Assembly (NCBI GenBank): GCA_951406725.2
Contig: OX597828.1
Coordinates: forward strand, 65,596,001-65,660,000
Reading direction: 5' to 3'
Length of the DNA: 64,000 nt
DNA from: Octopus vulgaris
Taxonomy: Eukaryota
Below the pieces are notes generated by a model that saw only the letters and a list, made by a program, of their open reading frames with translations, was not told the origin of the DNA and searched no databases. A program made the position numbers and the translations under genes. Position 1 is the first letter of the stretch. Every line of letters begins with the position of its first letter. Below, piece by piece: positions 2,144-60,179 of the stretch.

Positions 2144-2809
2144 ATTCTGTCTCTACCGTTCTCATGTCTTATCTCACAATTGTCATTCATTCGACTACTA
2201 CTTACTGGAGGCAACCACTTCTCCTACCATCTCCCTGAAACAACAGCACATACTATAACGCTCTCATCTATTTCTAGTTATTTCACTTCTCTTTCGAACC
2301 GATCCATACGGTTTTAGCTAGTTAGATTTCTTTCCCTCTCGTGTCCCAAAATTCTTGGTTACTTCTTTCGTTTCAAAGCAACGTCTATTTAGATAACTCC
2401 AACGAGGAGATTTCCTATGTAAAAGCTGTGTTACGAAATAAAGCATCAAAAGAACAATGGATTATATTTTTATTTTAACTCACAATAAAGATAACCCCAT
2501 GCCAAAACGGTCTCAAAATATTTATTCGGTCGACCTACTCCCCACCCCCGCCACCGCCGAAGACATCAAATGACACTTAACTCTGTGTTCAGTAATTGTT
2601 TTGTTGAGTACATTACATTCATTATGGTCTGCAGTTATGCCGAGGCATCGCTTTGAAGAGTTTTAGTCGAACAAATTGACCCCAGTTAATTTTTAAAGTC
2701 CGGTACTTATTTTGTTGGCCTATTTTATTGCCGAGCCGCTAGGCTACGAGAACATAAACAAACTAACTTTCTAACAATACCATTTCGCATACACACACTC
2801 ACTAAGCAG

Positions 2810-3298
2810 TTTAGTTCTTCTACTGTCCATGCTATTTACCTCTGCTCCATATCTAAGGAGTGAAACCACCCAGATGTTGAACGCTTCGATCTTATTCCGT
2901 CCGTTTAATTTCGACTTAAGGATCAGTCTACGAAAGTACTCCACCTTAGATTTTTCTGTCATTTCTTTCTCCAGCAATTTATCCATTTCCATAATCCCCA
3001 AGTCCTTATAGCTCGTCTCTTCTATCTGCTTCACAACCTCCACCAACGGTATCGTTAGCCCGTCCATACATATGATTTTGCCTCTCTTCAAGACTAACAC
3101 ACCACACTTTCTCAGTCCGAACTCTATTCTGATATCAGCACTGAAGGTATACATCGTATGAATGGTGGAACTGACTTGGGGTTCATCTTTACCATAAAGT
3201 TTGAGGTCATCCATGAATAACAAATGGTTGACTTTTTGCTGGCGGCTTTTGAATACATACCCAGCTTTTGCTTTCCTCAGAATCAGTGTTAGTGGTAT
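2810..3298 (-). pseudogene. R4/Dong-like non-LTR retrotransposon RT fragment
   Basis: ORF 2771..3223 has LFMDDLKLY, IEFGLRKC, YKDLGI and KSKLNGRNK motifs typical of R4-clade RT. Confidence 0.8.
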
Positions 3299-24799: not shown

Positions 24800-25565
24800 A
24801 TTTTTAAGGATTTATATCATTGGAGTAGGAATATTCATAAGCATTTTAACAATGATAATAAATATAGTGAAATTATTAATTATAAACATGTCAGAGTTGG
24901 TTTTAGTTTAACTCGTAATCTGTTTATGATCTTATCATCTATAAACAAAAAAATTAGTTTTTACAGAAACATCTTAACTTACCCACCTCAACCTAAATAG
25001 AATTGTTAACGGCCACAAATAACGTAATGGTGGAAGGGAAATAACCCATATTTTTCTCCCTTCCTAGTAATACTTCGAATAACATACATAAGGATGTAAA
25101 TGAAAATTGCAACTGTAAAGTTAAAATTAATTGTAAATTTAAAAATTTATGTAAGAAAGGTAACTTTGAATCTCAAGGAAAGAAATTTTATTATATCGGA
25201 TCAACAGAAAATAGAATTAAGATTAGAGTTGCTAACCATTTACAGAGACTAAAAATGAATTCTACTGGATTAAGTAAGTTCATATGGGAATTGAAGGATA
25301 ATAACATTGAATTTAATATTAAATGGGAGTTGAAGGATAATAACATTGAATTTAATATCAAATGGGAGTTGAAGGATAATAACATTGAATTTAATATTAA
25401 ATGGGAATTTGTGAGTTTTGTACAATCATATAAAACCCCCAACAAAAGATGTGAGTTGTGTACTGAAGAAGCATCTAGAAAAAATTTACTTAACTTAAAA
25501 CGAGAAAAAATATAACTTGCCTTCATTCAGCAAAATGTTTTTTCTAAGCATAATTAAACTTTATA
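24800..25565 (+). pseudogene. Penelope-like C-terminal/GIY-YIG fragment with 33-bp internal triplication
   Basis: CNCKVKINC, YYIGSTENRIKIRVANH, STGLSKFIWELK, (WELKDNNIEFNIK-type unit) x3 and RCELCTEE. Confidence 0.8.
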
Positions 25566-28185: not shown

Positions 28186-28390
28186 GCGTGTGTACCGTTG
28201 GTGATTTTTTTCCTCCGTCTTCCCTTCTTTGGATCTTTCCTTTTCCTATGTTTCTGACGAAGAGCTCCGCTCGAAACGTTAAACCCTCCTTCTTTCCTTC
28301 TCTCCTGAGCGTCCAATAATACTATACTTGTTCCACGTCCTCGAGTTGTTGTGTTTTCTCTCTTTGTGTTTTCATGTTTAGAATAACTAT
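28185..28390 (+). mobile_element. Short repeat, family A, carrying an intact minimal hammerhead
   Basis: Homologous to 60180-60332 (minus strand); abuts (TA)n on the left. Confidence 0.75.
28250..28284 (+). ncRNA. Minimal type I hammerhead ribozyme
   Basis: GTTT-CTGACGA-A-GAGC-TCC-GCTC-GAAA-CG-TT-AAAC: stem I GTTT/AAAC, stem II GAGC/GCTC, palindromic ACGT stem III, GUU cleavage triplet. Confidence 0.78.
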
Positions 28391-28407
28391 GTATACATGT
28401 ATACATT

Positions 28408-30003
28408 CAGCTCAGATAATAGAATTCGACGGTAGACTCTGGACCAGATCCGATACCCCCGACAATTTTGATGTGGCTATGGGCTCGAGCGATTCAGCTC
28501 AGGTGACTGACTTGGTCGGGGCCTACCTGCTCAAGAAGCTTTTCTCCGAGGTACCGGATCTTCAGGGGGGTCTATACAGAGACGACGCTCTCTTCATATA
28601 CCCCACCAACAATAGGAGTAAACTAGAAAGAATTAGGAAAAAGATCAGGCTTTTTTTCAAATCCTTCAATCTTAAACTAGAATTTATGACCAATACTAAA
28701 ATAGTAAACTTCTTAGATGTTACGTTAGACTTGAATAAGCACCTTCACCACCCGTATAGGAAACCCGAAGAAACTACCAAATACATCCATACCTCTTCCA
28801 ACCATCCACCCTGTATAATTAGCACCACGGTCCAAGCCATCTCAGACAGACTGACAAAACTATCCTCTAATAGAGAAATTTTCAATAATCACGCACAACA
28901 CTACAACCAGGCTCTCTATAGTGCCGGGTATAACCAGAGAATATCATATGTAGACCACCCGGGAGCGTCCGTCTACCATAAAACTCCCAATTATAATCGA
29001 ACTCAGCACTCAACTCACACTAGCGATAATTCTAATTTAAACTCCAAACAACGTATAGGAAATAGGCGAACTAATAGAATAGCACACAATAGTAACCCTC
29101 CCGACGAGAGCAATATAGATCCTATTAGGAGAAATAGAAGGGATAATAGATTACGCAAATACATATGGTTCAACTTACCTTACAACTTAGCAGTTAGGGG
29201 TAAGTTATGTAAGAGAATATTCTCTATCATTTCCAACAACTTCCCACCCACCCACAAGTATAGAAGTATCTTCTCCAACAAAACCATTAGGATTTCCTAC
29301 TCTACCCTGCCCAACATGAGCTGCCTCATAGCTAAACATAACTATATTAATATTAGAACAGCTAGATCAAGAGCAAACCATAGTGACCAACAGAACCCCC
29401 CTCATCTAGACAGTAGACAATATAACCAGACTGGCAGCCATACTACCCAAACAGTTAGTAATAACACCCGCCAACACAACAGAGGAAATACTACACCCAT
29501 CAACAACTAGGAGGATATCAACGCCCCCACTCGTATTGCAACACCTCCGCCTGGGATTAGCAGCACACGACCGAATAATGCAATGCAATGCAACTGCAGA
29601 TGTGCATCAGAGTGCCCGCTGTAGGGCGAAAAACGTAATATATTCATGTGAGGTGAGTACTCAGTTTAACACACTCACCTATATTGGTTGCTCAACCTCC
29701 TGGAAATCCAGATACTACAACCACCGGTCCTCGCTGAGACACAGACATAAGGCTAACAGCACCTCCCTTTCTAAAAGAATTTGGGAATTAAAAGACAAAT
29801 GTATAGGCTTCAAACTCAGATGGTCCATCATCGGATCAGCTGCACCTTATTTAAATAATAGAGCAGGATGCCAACTATGTTGTATAGAACTCCTGAACAT
29901 CTTGAAATTCAAAGACAAACACAATCTTATTAACAAAAGGTCAGAGTTCAAACCATCCTGTATACACAAACTTATTAATACTTTCAAATACTACAAAGCT
30001 TAG
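28408..30003 (+). pseudogene. 5'-truncated Penelope-like (Naiad-like) ORF: RT, Cys motif, GIY-YIG; one stop and one frameshift
   Basis: FDVAMGSSDSAQVTDLVG, GLYRDDAL, VNFLDVTLDL, YRKP, SNHPP, IWFNLPY, SYSTLPN; reading through TAG 29508-29510 gives CNCRCASECPL; the next frame gives VIY...YIG, NSTSLSKRIWELK, CQLC, INKRSE. Confidence 0.92.
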
Positions 30004-35812: not shown

Positions 35813-37860
35813 CTAAGGGGTTTTGTGGATATATGCTGTGTGGTTATTTAGGTTGCATTTAGGTTTGTGGTAAAATTGGAAGGTATGGAAAAGGCGGTGG
35901 TTGCATGTACTTAGGGCCTCGTTATATTTATTTAATTGTGTCGAGGAGTTGTGTTTTAATATGTGGAATACTTCTTTTAGGCATAGCATACAGGCTAAGC
36001 GTTGACCTTGGTATGGAAGCCCTGAATCTATTATGGACCATGACAAAATGTAGGGAATATTTCTATTTTTGAAATGATGCATGTAACTGGCGAGTGTTAT
36101 GGATTTACTGTATTTATCGTATCTAAAAGAATTGAGATGAGCGGTTGACCCTATGTATATATAGCTGTAGAATTGTGAAATGTGTTGAGGGCGGTGCATT
36201 TATAAATTACATTAGATCTTCTACGATTGGTTTGAAGAGGGCAGATGGACCCAGGACGACAGTTACAAGTGGGTGTATTTTGGAGATTGTTTTCAGGAAT
36301 GGAGGAGGTAATACTGTCAGAGGAGGGGTTAGAGATGGGGTAGAAAGGTCTAAGTTATTAGTATTATTATTACTATTATTGTTATCATTGCTATCGTTGT
36401 TGTTAATTATTTTATCTGTAACGGTAGTGGAAGTTGTGGTAGTATTCTGGATAGTGTTAGTAGGCTAGGTTGGGTTATTGTTGTGGTCTAATGTATGGAG
36501 TTCACTGCTGGAGCTGTGTACATTTTGGGCGCTTGTGTATTCAGAGTTGTTATAGTGTGAGTTTTGGTAATAGAGAGAAAGCTTTTGTTTATTAGAGGCT
36601 GCTATGATAGATTCAAAGTTGGGTGGGGTAGAATAGGATAGCATGAGGGCAGATCTATTAAAGATAGAGTAATATTTATGTTGGCGAGGGACGTTAGAGT
36701 CCAGAATATTAAAGAAGGATTTAGCTAAGTTCTTAACGTTTAGTGAGAAAAGGGGTGTATACCATAGAATGGAGCGTCCACCACTTTGTTTTGGGTGTTT
36801 AGGGGTGGGGCTATCTATATTTTTGGAAAATCGAAGGGGTGGCAAAGCCCGTTGTTGTTAGCTGTTTTAGCTTTTGACTTAGTGTTATATGTGTACGTAT
36901 GGGGCCTAGGTTGTCTTAATGCGGGTTCTCCCGGGGTTATAACATGGTATATGTGTGTGGTCTGTTGTGATTCTGATGGTTGGTGTGTCGTTGCGATGTG
37001 ATTTGAGATATATGTTGTTTGAGCCTAGTATTAAGGATGTATTTTATTTGTTAGGAGAAGCTGCTAGAAGAGAGTGTTTGGTTGCAATATGGTGCGTGGC
37101 TATTAAATATTTCCCCAGTGGAAGAGACGTCAGATATATGGATCGAGATACCTTTCACTATGTAATCAAAGGTGGACTTGTGGCGATTGGAATTAATGTT
37201 TAAGTATTTAAGGTACTGGTTAGGTTTGTGATAAGGGGAGTATTGGAAGGTTTCTAAGTTTAAAGTTACGTCTAAAAAGTTAGTAGTTTTGTTGGAATTT
37301 TCAAACGTAATAGACAGGTCTAGGCTAGAGAAACATTTGTGTAGATCTTTTCTAGCTCGTTCTAAAGAGGATTTGCTTACCCTCTTGGTAACTAGCAAGG
37401 CCTCATCTCTGTTGAGGCCTCCTTTGCGGTTAGGGAAATGTATTTAGAGCTGGTGGAATATGTATAGTCCAACGAGGTCAGTGAGCTGGGCGGAGTCAGA
37501 TGATCCCATGGTGATGTCAAATAAATTGCTATAGTTATTGGCATTGTTATGATGATTGGTCCGGCACCAGAGTTTGTCCTCAGAAGAAATAAAGGTTTGC
37601 AGGCATTAAAGATTATGTTAATTTCTAGTGGGGTAAGGTTGGTTAGATTCCTAGCTAGAAGGAGAGCTTGATTAAGAAGTTTGAGAGAAATAGAAGAATA
37701 GTAATTATTTATATCGAATCGTAGAAAAGAATAAGAATTTTGGCTGTTTAAGAGATGGAACCATGTCAAGAGATGGAACCATGTTCACCTGCACAGGACC
37801 ATGAGCTGACATTTAATCTCTCTTTGACGATTGGTATTATTGTCCAAAATATTTTTACTT
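35813..37860 (-). pseudogene. Penelope-like (Naiad-like) element, fragmented RT, Cys motif and GIY-YIG
   Basis: FLRFDINNYYSSI, TNFLDVTLNL, YHKP, ILWYTPLFS, SYSTPPN, CNCRPGSICPL (manual translation near 36230-36262), YIGST, CMLCLKE. Confidence 0.9.
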
Positions 37861-39064: not shown

Positions 39065-40535
39065 ATTTAGATTCAGATGAATATGGTACTTAAGTCAAAG
39101 GCACCAGAATTTTATATGGTCTTATCCATATAAATCAAATGGGGTGATTATAATGAAAATAAGCAACAAGTATATTCGAGGTAGAGCAGTACAATTGTTT
39201 TATGCTACTTCATTTTATTAAACACTGTAAGTATTACATCAGTTTTACATCAGTTTTACATCAGTTTTAAAATGTCGTGCAATCTTCAGCCACTTATAGA
39301 ATTTTCCAGTCAAACGGACAATGCACATTCTTATCTCTATTTCGTTTGCCAACATTATAAAGAGGGTAGATATATAGACAGAGAGGTTGATTTCATTCCT
39401 AAGAACTTGATAGTAGTAAATTCACTCCCTGACTGTAGATTTTATCATTGAGTTTACTTTGTTATTTAGATCTGTCAATGGGCAGGGGGATTTTATTTTT
39501 GGTGGGATGGAGACAAAGAATTTTTCTATTTATAGATATAGGAAGGGGTAGAAACAAATGTCAAAACCATAAACCTATTCCTATTCAGAGGAACCCAGCC
39601 CAGATACATTTGAATGCACTAAGCAAAAAGCTAGTATGTTGAAGTTAGAGGGGTAGGGGAAGATAGACTATTAGTGCTCTAGAGGTTTTAATGTCCCTTA
39701 CCATTTGACATCCAGATTCCATATTAAGAAATCTAAGTAAATATTCTTTAGACAATTTTCTAAAGAATTTCAATAAATATTAGTACCTTATATAGGGATA
39801 GAAAAAATATAGAAATCATTTCATATTTATATAAATATATATATATCCATTTCTATTAATATATAATCATAATTAGCTAGTAAATGGTGATTTTAATGAG
39901 TTTAATTAAAAGAAAATGTTGGACATAATATTTACTAACTGTGGAAAAAAAAACTTTATTAATTTAGCACATATATCAGGAGTCAATAAGATATATTAAA
40001 AAGTAATGGAAGGGAGGTAATCAAGATGAACCAAGTAATTTCTCTAGATATATAGAATTATTTGCGATTATTTCATATTTATATATCCCCATTTCCATTA
40101 ATATAGAATCATAATTAGCTAGTAAATGGGGATTTGTTTTATTAATGAGTCGAATTAAAAGAATATGTTAGACATAATGTTTACTAACTGTGGGGGAAAA
40201 TCTTTATCAATTTAGTAAATATATCAGGAGTCAATAAGATATATTAAAAATTAATGGAGGGGATGTAATCAAGATGAACCAAGTAATTTACCTTGATATA
40301 TAGAAATTTTTTTCCATCTAATATAGGAGAGTATCCAAAAATATTCTAATTTCATTATATTCAGATTTATATATTTAATGAAATTTCTTAGTAATCTATG
40401 CATAGATTCCGTTTTCTTCAATATATACCTGCTGACTCGGAAATCTACTAAGGATCCCTAGCTCCAGCCTCAGCCGTGCAGTTAGAATCTAACGGATCAC
40501 CAATTATAGCACTTACGCACTAAACCCCTTATATT
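39065..40535. mobile_element. PLE-like non-coding region: minus-strand HHR segment, ~240-bp tandem duplication, plus-strand tail
   Basis: 39068-39388 is the reverse complement of about 59860-60163; duplication at about 39818-40058 / 40069-40306; 40430-40535 homologous to the reverse complement of 13915-14050. Confidence 0.65.
39186..39293 (-). ncRNA. Type I hammerhead ribozyme, GAAA mutated to AAAA
   Basis: GTGG-CTGAAGA-TTGC...GCAT-AAAA-CAATTG-TA-CTGC. Confidence 0.7.
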
Positions 40536-54296: not shown

Positions 54297-55754
54297 AAAT
54301 CCTACTTCTTCCGTCGAGGGCTTATATGTCCATTATTAGATTACTTTCTGTAGTCGTTGCGCAGTGATCGCTTTAAGCTTATAAAATACTATTATATATA
54401 CACACAAGCTAGATAATCAAACAGTCAGGTAGATAGGCAGGTCGATAGATAATCAGATAGATAGACACATAATAAGATAGATAGATATTTGGGTTAAATG
54501 GTGGAAATAATCCAGTGACTTTTAATTTGGGACACTGCGATATTAAGTAACTTAATAAATTAAGTTTTATATCAAGGGGCTTAAAAACTAATTGATTTGG
54601 GAGTAATAAAATATCTAATAAAATTGTTATGAAAGCATTGTGTTTTAATATGCAGAATAATGCGGAGGAAAATGTAATTAATGGACAATAAAAGAAATCT
54701 ATCCTTGAAAGTCCAGGTAATTGAGAAGAATTTACAGTAGTTTAGTACAAGTATTTGTTTCATTCAATATAAACTATATGCGTCCTCTGTGGGTTGGAGT
54801 GAAAGTTGCTAATCTGCATAGAGATGGAATTGAAATACAAGTGAGTATAAGTTTAAGTACAACAATGATCAAGTAACCAATGGCAGACTGTGGTTAACTC
54901 TGAAATAAAGTCGTTATATAAAACATAAAGTACTTTTCTATTTTTCTCTTGTTTGTCTTTGCACTCACATTATCATATAAAGCAATAAATCAAAACTTCT
55001 GGGCATCGATGAAAAATTATTTCTTTCGAATACGTATGTTTTTCTTTTTATATATATTTCCGCACTTATTTGCACAAATACCATGCTTCCTTGGGGATAG
55101 AGCGTTGGTTTTTTGTCTTGCTTTGTTTGTGTGTTTTTCTTTCTTAATTCTGTTTTCTTCACTTTCTCGGTCTAGAGAATGGGACAGTGCCCATGACCTC
55201 TGCAAGCTCCGAGTCTGATGAATTTGTAGTTATTGATGGTTCTGTTTAAACTGGTGCACGTCAACATCTGCAAGAAAGAATTGACTGGGGAGAAGTTTCC
55301 AGAAGACTATGTTCTAAGATACGTTCGTGTATTAATGAGATGTATGCATCGAAGTTGATATTTGACAGGAATTAAAAAGTTTGATATATTTTGTGTTATG
55401 ATATGAAAATATAAGCATCAGATACGCATTTCTCTATTAAATACTTATTAAAAATATGGAATTGTTTTGGTCGCTTTCGAAAAATTAATATTAAGTTGTT
55501 AGAAAATATTTCAAAACTTTTACAAATGTAAAATTTGAAATTTCATTTCTTAATAAGGTAAGGCATGATAAGGGAGATGATTCCAGAGGCCTGATGTTCT
55601 AGGAAGTTAAAGAGCATAATGCTTACTGCGGAACCAGACACAATAAGGATGATGAGAGATGGAGAGAGGAATGACTTGGAAATGTTTGATTGGAGGAGGT
55701 ACGGGACCAGTCAGCTCCGAGGAACAGAGACCATTACAGGAGCAATAGAGAGAG

Positions 55755-56656
55755 GAGCCAGTACACCGAAGTTAATGATGACCGAAACAAAGCCATAATT
55801 GAACCTGATTGTCATATAATTGTGCGAGAGATTTCAGAGAGGTTAAGTGTATCACGCACAACAATTGAAAATCACTTAAGATGCCTTGGACTCATTAAGA
55901 AGCTCAATATTTGGGTTCCACATAAACTGAAAGAGATTCACTTAACACAACGAATCAATATTTTCTATGTGTATTTCAAACGCAATGAAATCAATCTTTT
56001 TTTTAAGGAATCACCGCTGGTGATGAAAAATGGATTGTCTACAATAGCATCAATCGAAAATGATCATGATCCAAGCATAATGAACCAGCACAAACCACAT
56101 CGAAAGCTGAATTGCATCAAAAAATGTCATGCTGTCAATTTAGTGGGATTACAAAAGTGTTGTGTATTTTGGGATGCTTCCAAAGAACCAAACGATCAAT
56201 TCAGATGTTTACTGTCAACAACTAATGAAACTAAGGAAGCAATCAAAGAAAAACGGCCAAAATTGGCAAATCGTGTTCCACTATGACAACGATAGACTAC
56301 ACACGTCTTTGCTAACTCGTGAAAAATTATTGTAGCTATGTTGGGGAGTGAAAGCCACATCCACCATATAACCCTGACCTTGCACCATCAGAGTACCATT
56401 TATTTCGAAGTTTGTAAAATTCTTTGAATGGTAAAATTTTCAATAATGATGATGACCTGAAATTGCTTCAGTTTTTGACTGATAAGAACCAGAAGTTCTA
56501 TGAACACAGAATCAGGAAATTGCCAGAAAGATGGCAAAAGGTCATCGAACAAAATGGAAAATATGTAATTGATTAAAGTTCATTCTTTGTATGAAAAAAA
56601 AGACATTTATTTCGCACTAAAAAAAAACAAAATTACTTTCTTGCCAACCCAATATA
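55755..56656 (+). pseudogene. mariner transposase pseudogene with right TIR
   Basis: VREISERLSVSRTTIENHL, WVPHKL, ITAGDEKWIVY (shifted frame), YDNDRLH, HPPYNPDLAPSEYHLF; ends TTGCCAACCCAATA-TA. Confidence 0.9.
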
Positions 56657-57797: not shown

Positions 57798-58706
57798 CAT
57801 ATATATATATATATATTTATACATGTGTACATATATATATGCATATACATACATATATGTATATTCGTGTATAAAGATATATATACATAATAACAACATA
57901 TTTATATGCATGTATGTGCATGTATACACACACAAACACACACACGCACGCACACACACACACACACACACATACACACACACGCACGCACATACACAAA
58001 GTGTCACACAAACTGACTGCAACACGCACTCTCCAACATCCTGTAGTTTATTTAAAACATTATTAATTCGGTATATAATTAAAGATCTGAAGGAAATATA
58101 TTAATTGAATATTTCAGCTTTTGCAAATGCTAATCTAGAATTTTAAGCATCAAAACTACATATACATTAATATATCATTATGTGTATGTATGTATGTGTG
58201 TCTGTGTATGTATGTATGTATGTATGTATGTATGTATGTATGTATGTATGTATGTATGTATGTATGTATGTATGTATGTATGTATGTATGTATATAGGCT
58301 CCAGGGACTACATGCCTGAGTATACCCTTGTGTGATTTTATGTATCCCTCCGGTGTATCTGGTCTGCACTTGTGGCTGTATGCGTTACTTGAAGGACAAA
58401 TCCGTACATGCTTTAGTAAGTACGTGAGTATCCGTACACCCTGTTAATACAAAGGTATGCTATCTTCGACTCTACCATGATGCCGTTGACACTAAATTAC
58501 CTCGATTGTATTGGAACCTGAAAATAATTTATATATATATACGTATATGTCTAGGTATACATATATAAATATATATATATATTGTATAGAGGGCATTATT
58601 ACACATAAATGCCTCACACTAAGAGGGACATAAGTCATTACTACCAAAATTTCACTAATCATACCTAATGCAGTTTTTCAAAGCAAGACATTTAAAAAAT
58701 GAATTT

Positions 58707-58773
58707 AGTTCTATATCACCTGTGATTTCACACTTACCGCATAAAAAATGCGTCTATGCTCATCAGTAGAACT
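58707..58773 (-). ncRNA. Intact type I hammerhead ribozyme
   Basis: AGTTCTA-CTGATGA-GCAT..CGCAT-T5-ATGCG..GTGT-GAAA-TCAC-AG-GTGA-TA-TAGAACT; 7-bp stem I, canonical core, self-pairing stem III, AUA triplet. Confidence 0.9.
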
Positions 58774-58926
58774 GATTCTGAACACATCATAAATAAACGA
58801 CCAACATTACCTGGCGAAGTCGAACAGACATCTGCTCTCTCCGGCGAAGCACATGGAGATGTTTATAAATCATATATTCGGTAAATGGCGGGCTTTTTCG
58901 AACTGCATGTCGGGTAGGAAAAGTTA

Positions 58927-58975
<49 letters not shown>

Positions 58976-58977
<2 letters not shown>

Positions 58978-59790
58978 TAGCAGTATTGCCCGGCTCGTGC
59001 GTTCTATGCACACACGAATTAAGCTAAACTTGGATGAAGTTCAATCAAAATTCAATTATTTTGGTTTTAAAATCAAGCATTTAATGCCCTCTATTTTTGC
59101 GCTTATGTGTTCCATTTCCTCAATAGGAAGTACATAAATTTTTGTTGATCAAATAATTGCATTATTGAATTATTCTTTTAGATCAGTATTTCTCAGCGGG
59201 GGTTTCAGGGGAGAGTTTCAGGGAATCGCCGGCGATGTATCGTGATGATCAAGAATCCGGCTTGCTAAAATTTGGCTAAAGTGATTCAAACTGCAGACTC
59301 AACACAAAATGGTCACATTTAATTCAAAGCGTTAAAAATGTTATGAAAACAATTGGTATATGTTCACAAAGTCCAAACGATTAATACGAAAAAACCCTCC
59401 AGGCTACATCCCGAAAATTCATTTCTTCGCCGAATTTCTACAATGTTTACGGCGATTCGTTTTTATATCTTGATTTTTATTTTTCATGCAATTTACGCGT
59501 GCTTGCACGCGTGGTGAACACAGTTCACGTCAAACAGCTGACTGAGTAAAGTTCACTATTCAATGCATAGGATAAGGCCTAAACAAACACATTATCGATT
59601 TTTGCACTTGCAAGATGAATTTCGGAACAGAAATAGCGCAGTTCAATTTTCATTCGCCTAAACTTTAAGTTACCCATTTTTGGTGGTTCTACGATTTGTT
59701 GGCTAGGAGATGTGCCGGGAAGTTAAACACACAGACATACACACAGATAGACACACAGATACACAAGTTGAGTTTTATATATATAGATAT
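58976..59790 (-). mobile_element. Non-autonomous Helitron-like element
   Basis: Plus strand starts ACTAGCAGTATTGCCCGGC and ends ...GAGTTTTATATATATAGA, matching the terminal pattern of 19556-19922; inserted in (TA)n. Confidence 0.6.
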
Positions 59791-59960: not shown

Positions 59961-60046
59961 GTGGCTGAAGATTGCTCGACATTTTAAAACTGATGTAATA
60001 CTTACAGTGTTTAATAAAATGAAGTAGCATGAAACAATTATACTAC
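59961..60046 (+). ncRNA. Type I hammerhead ribozyme, same family as 39186-39293
   Basis: GTGG-CTGAAGA-TTGCT...AGCAT-GAAA-CAATTA-TA-CTAC. Confidence 0.75.
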
Positions 60047-60179
60047 TCTACCTTGGATATCTTTGTTGCTCATTTTGATTATAATCACCCCATTTGATTT
60101 ATATTGATAATACCATACAAAACTCTGGTGCCTTTAACTTAAGTACCATATTCATCTGAATCTATATATATATATATAG

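Follow-up and report, generated by a model that had tools for sequence, protein, structure and literature searches.

A short non-coding element lying between TA-rich tracts in 64,000 nucleotides of Octopus vulgaris DNA (the window, by which the whole of that stretch is meant throughout) carries the letters of a hammerhead ribozyme on its minus strand, and raises the question of what kind of element this is, how it reached its present site, and whether its ribozyme works alone or in company. An earlier note on this DNA had read the motif as a fully canonical, probably monomer-active hammerhead, the best candidate for an active ribozyme and part of a non-autonomous retrozyme-like unit. The analysis described here gives good reason to regard it instead as a hammerhead in a 5'-truncated, single-ribozyme copy of a non-coding repeat of ~481 nt, probably a non-autonomous retrozyme copied into (TA)n by the reverse transcriptase (RT) and GIY-YIG endonuclease of a Penelope-like element (PLE).

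Read from the letters, the motif is a type I hammerhead with the CUGANGA and GAAA boxes, an NUH cleavage triplet and the type I order all present (Table 1). Much of the earlier description is borne out, including the exact CUGAUGA and GAAA boxes, the perfect 7-bp stem I, in which all seven pairs are Watson-Crick and the extension through GAAT/ATTC follows a 1x2 internal loop, the inner CGCAT/ATGCG hairpin of stem II, two of whose pairs have compensatory changes, and the predicted cut, which matches the AUA triplet and hammerhead numbering. The term fully canonical goes too far, however, as stem II (GCAT/GTGT) is closed in the window copy by a G10.1-U11.1 pair, as opposed to the conserved G-C that is typical of hammerheads but not required. 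Likewise, the stem III letters ATCAC-AG-GTGAT are complementary as claimed, but five pairs would leave a 2-nt loop, and the hairpin form is thus 4 bp closed by CAGG, at +0.4 kcal/mol.

Table 1. Positions of the ribozyme, of the insertion that carries it and of the flanking tracts, in window coordinates
Feature	Positions	Strand	Basis or remark
Complete insertion (~481-nt unit, 5'-truncated)	58578..58925	-	Unit position 270 through the cut to ~133; neither tail nor inverted arm
Fixed 3' end, site 1, putative reverse transcription start	58578..58600	-	57/118 segments end there
Hammerhead ribozyme, type I	58707..58773	-	Boxes, stems, shuffles, covariation
Stem I 5' strand, AGTTCTA	58767..58773	-	6 conserved pairs; 7th pair in 19/27 variants only
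Core box CUGAUGA (C3-A9)	58760..58766	-	Sequence
Stem II 5' strand GCAU, G10.1 at 58759	58756..58759	-	Sequence, covariation
Loop 2 inserted hairpin, CGCAU / U-run / AUGCG	58738..58752	-	Two pairs with compensatory changes
Loop 2 last A (58734, A in 27/27) and stem II 3' strand GUGU	58730..58734	-	U11.1 at 58730 gives the G-U closing pair
Core box GAAA (G12 A13 A14 A15.1)	58726..58729	-	Sequence
Stem III near-palindrome, AUCAC-AG-GUGAU	58715..58726	-	Monomer, 4 bp and tetraloop; double hammerhead, 5+5 bp duplex
Predicted cleavage site, after A17 of AUA	58713..58714	-	Sequence and hammerhead numbering; 4/100 sampled copies stop there
Stem I 3' strand, TAGAACT	58707..58713	-	U1.7 at 58707 invariant, 27/27; opposite base A, U or C
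Stem I extension, 3' side, ATTC	58701..58704	-	Pairs with GAAT, 58778-58775
TA-rich target tract, element 3' side	58529..58581	.	Sequence
(TA)n target tract, element 5' side	58926..58977	.	Sequence

That hammerhead boxes arose here by accident of AT-rich composition can be dismissed with near certainty, even though Rfam returns no hammerhead match to the motif at the gathering score or at E<=10 (the hairpin inserted in loop 2 is a likely reason) and its fold has a z of only ~-2. It is the one motif in the window with a stem I of at least 5 bp, and when the window was shuffled 100 times with its dinucleotides preserved, the hits per shuffle came to 0.0 for stems I, II and III of at least 7, 4 and 4 bp, and to 0.02 for stem I of at least 7 bp. 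Genome-wide, at least 475 exact matches to the ribozyme pattern were counted, and at least 1151 to a relaxed one, against 0 and 1 for the respective reversed-pattern controls; all such counts are lower bounds from patterns that fix some letters. Covariation in the stems also speaks against chance. Among 27 ribozyme variants picked to span subfamilies, 91.6% of cells pair (20-51% in slid controls), 9 of 25 pairs have changes on both sides, and the covariation score is 0.267, compared with 0.153 in shuffled and at most 0.093 in slid controls, the covarying pairs comprising four in stem I, three in stem II and two in the inserted loop 2 hairpin. These figures are inflated by the kinship of the sequences, and since 81 of 500 shuffles equalled the both-side count, covariation supports, rather than proves, constraint on the ribozyme.

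Other positions tell a similar story. Core letters, H17 and compensatory stems are retained across subfamilies that are 65-99% alike, in line with the earlier expectation of a conserved core, and variation at N7 and H17 stays within hammerhead rules (the H being imposed by one search pattern), with U4C common. Two letters, U1.7 and the final A of loop 2 (here an internal loop), are invariant in all 27 variants, and one study links both to a Hoogsteen contact and fast cleavage (PMC11875169); since A, U or C may stand opposite U1.7, stem I is the canonical 6 bp. Stem III is invariant within subfamily group A1, in part from letters fixed by the search patterns, and its fifth pair, beside the 2-nt loop, is C-G here and G-C or U-A in two distant families. 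The 10.1-11.1 pair varies most, with G-C in 12 variants, A-U in 5, G-U in 2 and unpaired or other combinations in 8. By comparison of sequences, the window motif is a real hammerhead, under apparent selection for its fold. It cannot be called the best candidate for activity, as had been proposed, for sister subfamilies have the CUGA core plus the G-C pair.

The segment that holds the ribozyme runs from 58925 to 58582-58578, its 3' edge merging into TA. The earlier estimate of ~330 bp placed it correctly between TA-rich tracts, but it measures 344-348 bp and is a 5'-truncated piece, with one ribozyme, of a longer unit, as the flanks of its relatives reveal. A search with 58925-58582 in the 2.8-Gb genome gave 1903 first-look candidates, and the 40 of these that were scored yielded 62 dispersed matches, the 40 full-length ones being 92-100% identical, and the window copy is 96% identical to a natural unit at locus L012. 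With unit position 1 defined as the base after the predicted cut, cut-to-cut periods are 463-497 nt overall: the closest subfamilies have 481-488 nt (one copy with a deletion has 463), a young subfamily that resembles the window copy at 88.5% has 477-481 nt, and a subfamily ~70% alike has 497 nt. The unit has a GC content of 33%, its tail motif has at least 2364 exact matches in the genome (control 1), and the exact window core with its stem II variant occurs in 9 places only. Copies include dimers and one trimer, with at most three ribozymes in tandem, and many short copies have no ribozyme. Four natural units are strongly self-paired when folded as circles (z -4.7 to -6.2, 25 shuffles). The longest ATG reading frame wholly within a young dimer (L271:643-1485) encodes 58 aa on the antisense strand. 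No LTR layout was seen in unit copies, and target-site duplications are unreadable in (TA)n. Thus the proposal of a non-autonomous, retrozyme-like unit, lacking reading frames and present in many copies and in tandem forms, is upheld. The window copy itself, having one ribozyme, would release no unit-length RNA. The class of element is already known, and taken alone this copy is an ordinary dead end.

Fragments of the unit were also found in sequencing runs labelled as organisms C and D, and assembled contigs of presumed-RNA runs cover the unit, although these contigs carry no end, strand or circle signal. A bacterial promoter scan, which is not meaningful here, found nothing. The subfamily L267-L281 is young (97-100% alike), has U-U at the stem II base and an 11-nt stem III, and is abundant in dimers and four-ribozyme inverted insertions, with one trimer. 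Two further non-coding hammerhead families (L164-L177 with L181-L183, and L178-L180) resemble the unit scarcely or not at all by BLAST and match its design, with a loop 2 hairpin, a 5-2-5 stem III, two 3' ends, inverted arms and TA targets.

How such copies were inserted can be read from their ends. Among 118 distinct segments from the closest subfamilies, picked by similarity and not at random, 57 end at site 1, ~133 nt after the cut, 43 at site 2, at ~261 nt, and 18 elsewhere; the two sites are ~120 nt apart, and segment ends run into (TA)n. Segments longer than one unit number 25. All 33 inverted pairs in which both ends could be classified consist of one site-1 and one site-2 arm (binomial P ~1e-10), one end being unclassified in the other 14 of 47. 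Of the 46 solo segments, 26 terminate at site 1, and the window copy belongs to this type of solo arm. Whether both inverted arms stop at the same template position was also considered and rejected, 8 of 33 pairs lying within 40 nt as against 5.3 when shuffled (P=0.12). Copies that extend past the tail continue into the next unit, and the sequence upstream of the ribozyme is that of the previous unit.

This anatomy has a precedent. Two studies describe PLE insertions in which the pLTR is inverted and one end carries a tail (PMC3846280, PMC8557442), and the protein of the anole element Poseidon uses two internal RT start sites and extends both target strands (PMC11167929). The octopus family has the traits of EN+ PLE insertions, namely a partial tandem, an inverted 5'-truncated arm, a tail on one arm and a microsatellite target, although the tail of ~120 nt lies outside the 30-40 bp of described PLEs. 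No PLE reading frame (RT plus GIY-YIG) was fused to the unit in 170 loci, out of more than 2,000 in the genome. PLE-type anatomy together with the lack of an attached reading frame marks the family as a probable non-autonomous, PLE-type retrozyme. In the mechanism that we favour, tandem source copies would be transcribed and no more than a fraction of the transcripts cut by their ribozymes, for which pairing into a double hammerhead by way of the palindromic stem III would be the easiest route. The RNA would then be bound by a PLE protein that nicks both strands of a TA tract, with one cDNA primed at site 1 and another at site 2; if both were kept, a head-to-head join would give an inverted insertion with a tail on one arm, and otherwise a solo arm would result, such as that in the window.

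The same ends might be produced if the unit were the pLTR of an unseen autonomous PLE, its copies end stubs, and its tandems formed during insertion. The insertion anatomy equals that of PLE ends, and PLE end stubs are common, most hammerhead motifs being single and probably from truncated PLEs (PMC4209133). We nonetheless consider such an origin improbable, because the next unit follows the tail and the previous one precedes the ribozyme, the period holds constant across several subfamilies, at 463-497 nt, no fused frame occurs in the 170 loci, and the longest internal ATG frame of the L271 dimer is that of 58 aa. About as improbable is a ribozyme that has decayed, lost the ability to cut and become a passenger, with mobility resting on the two priming sites only. 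Ribozyme mutants left insertion by the anole Poseidon protein in vitro unaffected (PMC11167929), the young, dimer-rich subfamily has its U-U at 10.1-11.1, and the ribozyme is missing from many short copies. Read-through of the cut also agrees with a passenger: an anchor of 20 bases lying directly after the cut has 390 matches, the first 100 of which, in genome order, were read by eye over the next 57 bases, and 79 copies read through the whole 57-nt stretch. Of the 21 that stop inside it, however, 4 stop on the predicted cut, within microhomology (P ~0.02), and 18 lie on its 3' side, with 3 beyond (P ~0.003 after merging three two-arm insertions); stops at the cut are seen again in loci L272 and L275-L277. 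Joins by microhomology are favoured in so AT-rich a stretch, and the stops are therefore a hint only that some templates were cleaved RNAs in vivo. It is the retention of the core, H17 and compensatory stems across divergent subfamilies, along with these stops, that argues against a passenger. For the non-autonomous retrozyme preferred here, the prevalence of read-through means that the usual template was an uncut multimer or a religated circle, and most templates were uncut or religated RNAs.

Whether the ribozyme cuts as a monomer is a further question, and its earlier description as monomer-active by way of an intramolecular stem III finds no support in the folding models. In the monomer, the stem III hairpin occupies ~1% of the ensemble; the stem III duplex between two copies is worth -11.2 kcal/mol. 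The minimum free energy (MFE) structure is a hammerhead in 0 of 27 variants folded as monomers, and a double hammerhead in 14 of 27 folded as two copies, including that of the window, whose double hammerhead lies 5.0 kcal/mol below two monomers. Because energy models omit core and tertiary contacts, and any self-complementary RNA favours dimers, this argument is indirect, but the fifth stem III pair differs in a complementary way between families, as would be expected if the duplex were under selection. On such models, the predicted ribozyme likely works best in pairs, as a double hammerhead. Some cleavage by a monomer of the window type is to be expected on balance, efficient cleavage is doubtful, and the window copy, if transcribed, would probably cut weakly alone.

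An efficiently active monomer, with two successive cuts giving unit-length circles that serve as templates, is a rival reading, if an unlikely one. At 4 bp, helix III exceeds the 1-2 bp of most metazoan hammerheads (PMC4209133), and in invertebrate retrozymes a helix III of 2 bp is enough for a hammerhead to cleave as a monomer; retrozyme monomers of coral and mussel do so at ~0.8 and ~0.1 per min (PMC7229834). The invariant U1.7 and last A of loop 2 are the pair tied to fast cleavage in PMC11875169, just 3.5 kcal/mol separates the monomer hammerhead fold of the window copy from the MFE, circular natural units are well folded, and arms of up to 1270 nt are compatible with rolling-circle copying. 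Uncut multimers explain the long arms equally well, however, and efficient monomer cleavage is further opposed by the G-U at 10.1-11.1, by the rarity of stem III in the monomer ensemble, and by A2.7, which in the window copy can hold U1.7. An axolotl ribozyme, with U-U at the helix II base, cut just 22% in 1 h as a monomer and did better as a dimer (PMC7229834). What speaks against the reading favoured here is that, when predicted dimers of Xenopus retrozymes were assayed, only 1 of 9 cleaved in one test (10.64898/2026.07.22.740005).

With regard to known systems, the octopus family has the traits of non-LTR retrozymes, being a tandem unit with one hammerhead per unit, no coding capacity, a GC content below 50% and a self-paired circle. 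It resembles metazoan non-LTR retrozymes (PMC7229834) in its non-coding, low-GC unit, its single type I hammerhead, its tandems, its self-paired circle and the presence of PLEs in the genome, and in a weak helix II base like that of axolotl HHR_Amex2. It differs in unit size (~481-497 nt, theirs being ~170-400), in occurring mostly as dispersed solo and inverted insertions with three ribozymes at most in tandem, in its loop 2 hairpin and longer, 5-2-5 helix III, and in being known from DNA copies, whereas circles are described for theirs. With the vertebrate retrozymes of Li, Clavereau and Pollet 2026 (10.64898/2026.07.22.740005) it shares dispersed monomers, a size within their 51-972 bp and a proposed derivation from PLEs. 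The host here is an invertebrate, and where their PLE link consists of co-occurrence and pLTR homology, that of the octopus family consists of insertion anatomy, no homology to the PLE loci compared having been found. They define an active retrozyme by two complete tandem ribozymes; the window copy has one. The family is likely a metazoan retrozyme of known class with PLE insertion anatomy, in agreement with the PLE derivation proposed in that study. Literature searches on octopus and cephalopod retrozymes, hammerheads and Penelope found no paper on this family, for which a Repbase or Dfam entry may exist.

The likeness to EN+ PLE insertions (PMC3846280, PMC8557442, PMC11167929) extends to partial tandems, inverted 5'-truncated arms, a one-arm tail, AT-rich targets, two fixed ends downstream of the hammerhead and read-through of the cut site; the octopus unit is set apart by its lack of a reading frame, its tail of ~120 rather than 30-40 nt, and a full-size rather than minimal ribozyme. 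The minimal PLE hammerhead has helix III absent or of 1-2 bp, a helix I of 4-5 bp, and a long helix II with an extra 5' base (PMC4209133). Both are type I and have a palindromic helix III suited to dimers, but here helix I has 6 bp plus its extension, helix II has 4 bp without an extra base at 9/10.1, and helix III has 4-5 bp; the same study finds G10.1-C11.1 to be highly conserved in hammerheads. The pDo500 satellite of Dolichopoda cave crickets (PMC2837043) is described as a similar ~500-bp unit with one type I hammerhead, proposed single and double modes of action, and compensatory changes that include 10.1-11.1. There, however, the unit forms a satellite in long arrays, ~5% of a genome, whereas the octopus family is dispersed and has PLE-type ends.

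One young PLE family (L091-L097, for example L094:768-4468) is a candidate helper of the retrozyme unit, judged from its sequence. Both of its reading frames are intact, one a 479-aa ORF1 with no Pfam match and the other, at L091:2245-4587 for instance, a 781-aa protein with RT and GIY-YIG domains, RVT_1 falling just under the Pfam cut-off, and the full 781-aa frame is found in at least 16 copies among the matches listed. It carries a different, minimal hammerhead with a U3-A8 core variant, and repeated GATTGG and TGACGTC boxes in its 3' UTR. A CX4CXXC linker points to Neptune or Nematis by the criteria of PMC8557442. Its copies, too, terminate in (TA)n at either of two sites, separated by ~36 nt, and the second site is immediately preceded by ATCCT, as it is in the non-coding families, a five-letter likeness noticed post hoc. 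When the unit was compared by blastn with 42 PLE loci and the window, the one similarity found was a separate unit insertion in L068, with no DNA similarity to the 781-aa PLE, and tblastn of four PLE proteins against the 170 unit loci met only neighbours split off by TA tracts or other DNA (L140 was checked by eye). The genome has further PLE families. Unit copies often lie beside 5'-truncated PLEs or other hammerhead families across TA tracts (L068, L146, L156, L182), as shared targets and nested insertions.

Taken further, the superfamily may be a genomic record of animal retrozymes riding PLE proteins, a reading that we hold tentatively and at somewhat less than even confidence. In every inverted insertion there would be one priming per RNA site (one PLE dimer, two target strands), with the ATCCT shared with the young PLE marking site 2; some cDNAs would run off exactly at the cut, and the helix II base would have lost strength several times over (G-U, A-U, A-C, U-U), making cutting dependent on a partner ribozyme and letting multimers or circles last until they are copied. 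If this is true, trans-mobilisation of retrozymes, at present no more than a proposal, could be examined in vitro with the unit and the 781-aa PLE. More generally, since the PLE link of animal retrozymes has so far rested on co-occurrence and pLTR homology, the family is useful in offering insertion-pattern evidence for PLE enzymes in their spread. It also supplies a sharp rule for building inverted PLE insertions, one site-1 plus one site-2 arm, names a young, intact 781-aa PLE as candidate helper, and provides a natural series of ribozyme variants suited to comparing monomer and dimer cleavage.

The window contains other traces of mobile elements. The earlier remark that no RT frame lies nearby is right in that no non-repetitive long reading frame occurs within ~2 kb, but there is a broken PLE-like frame 29 kb away. 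There, at 28254-30000 (+), a minimal hammerhead (CUGACGA, a GAGC/GCUC stem II, GAAA and a palindromic AACGUU), probably one of those that the earlier note called minimal, stands upstream of two broken frames that have no Pfam match and that we take to resemble PLE RT and GIY-YIG. Fragments of reading frames at 25045-25512 (+), 36468-37784 (-), 55690-56283 (+) and 2774-3298 (-) appear to resemble GIY-YIG, PLE RT, a mariner transposase and a non-LTR RT. Elsewhere in the genome, L151:1380-1560 (-) holds a 99-bp local duplication with a whole ribozyme core and TA tract. A repeat search of the 64-kb window found no second copy of the element, only microsatellites and one inverted pair. Adjoining the element between TA tracts is a different repeat, at 58978-59790, which is also found in L110, L147 and L223 and whose ends, to our eye, recall Helentron-associated elements. 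The inverted pair, at 39065-39247 and 59985-60167, consists of copies of a 183-nt repeat that are 92% alike and present in other loci.
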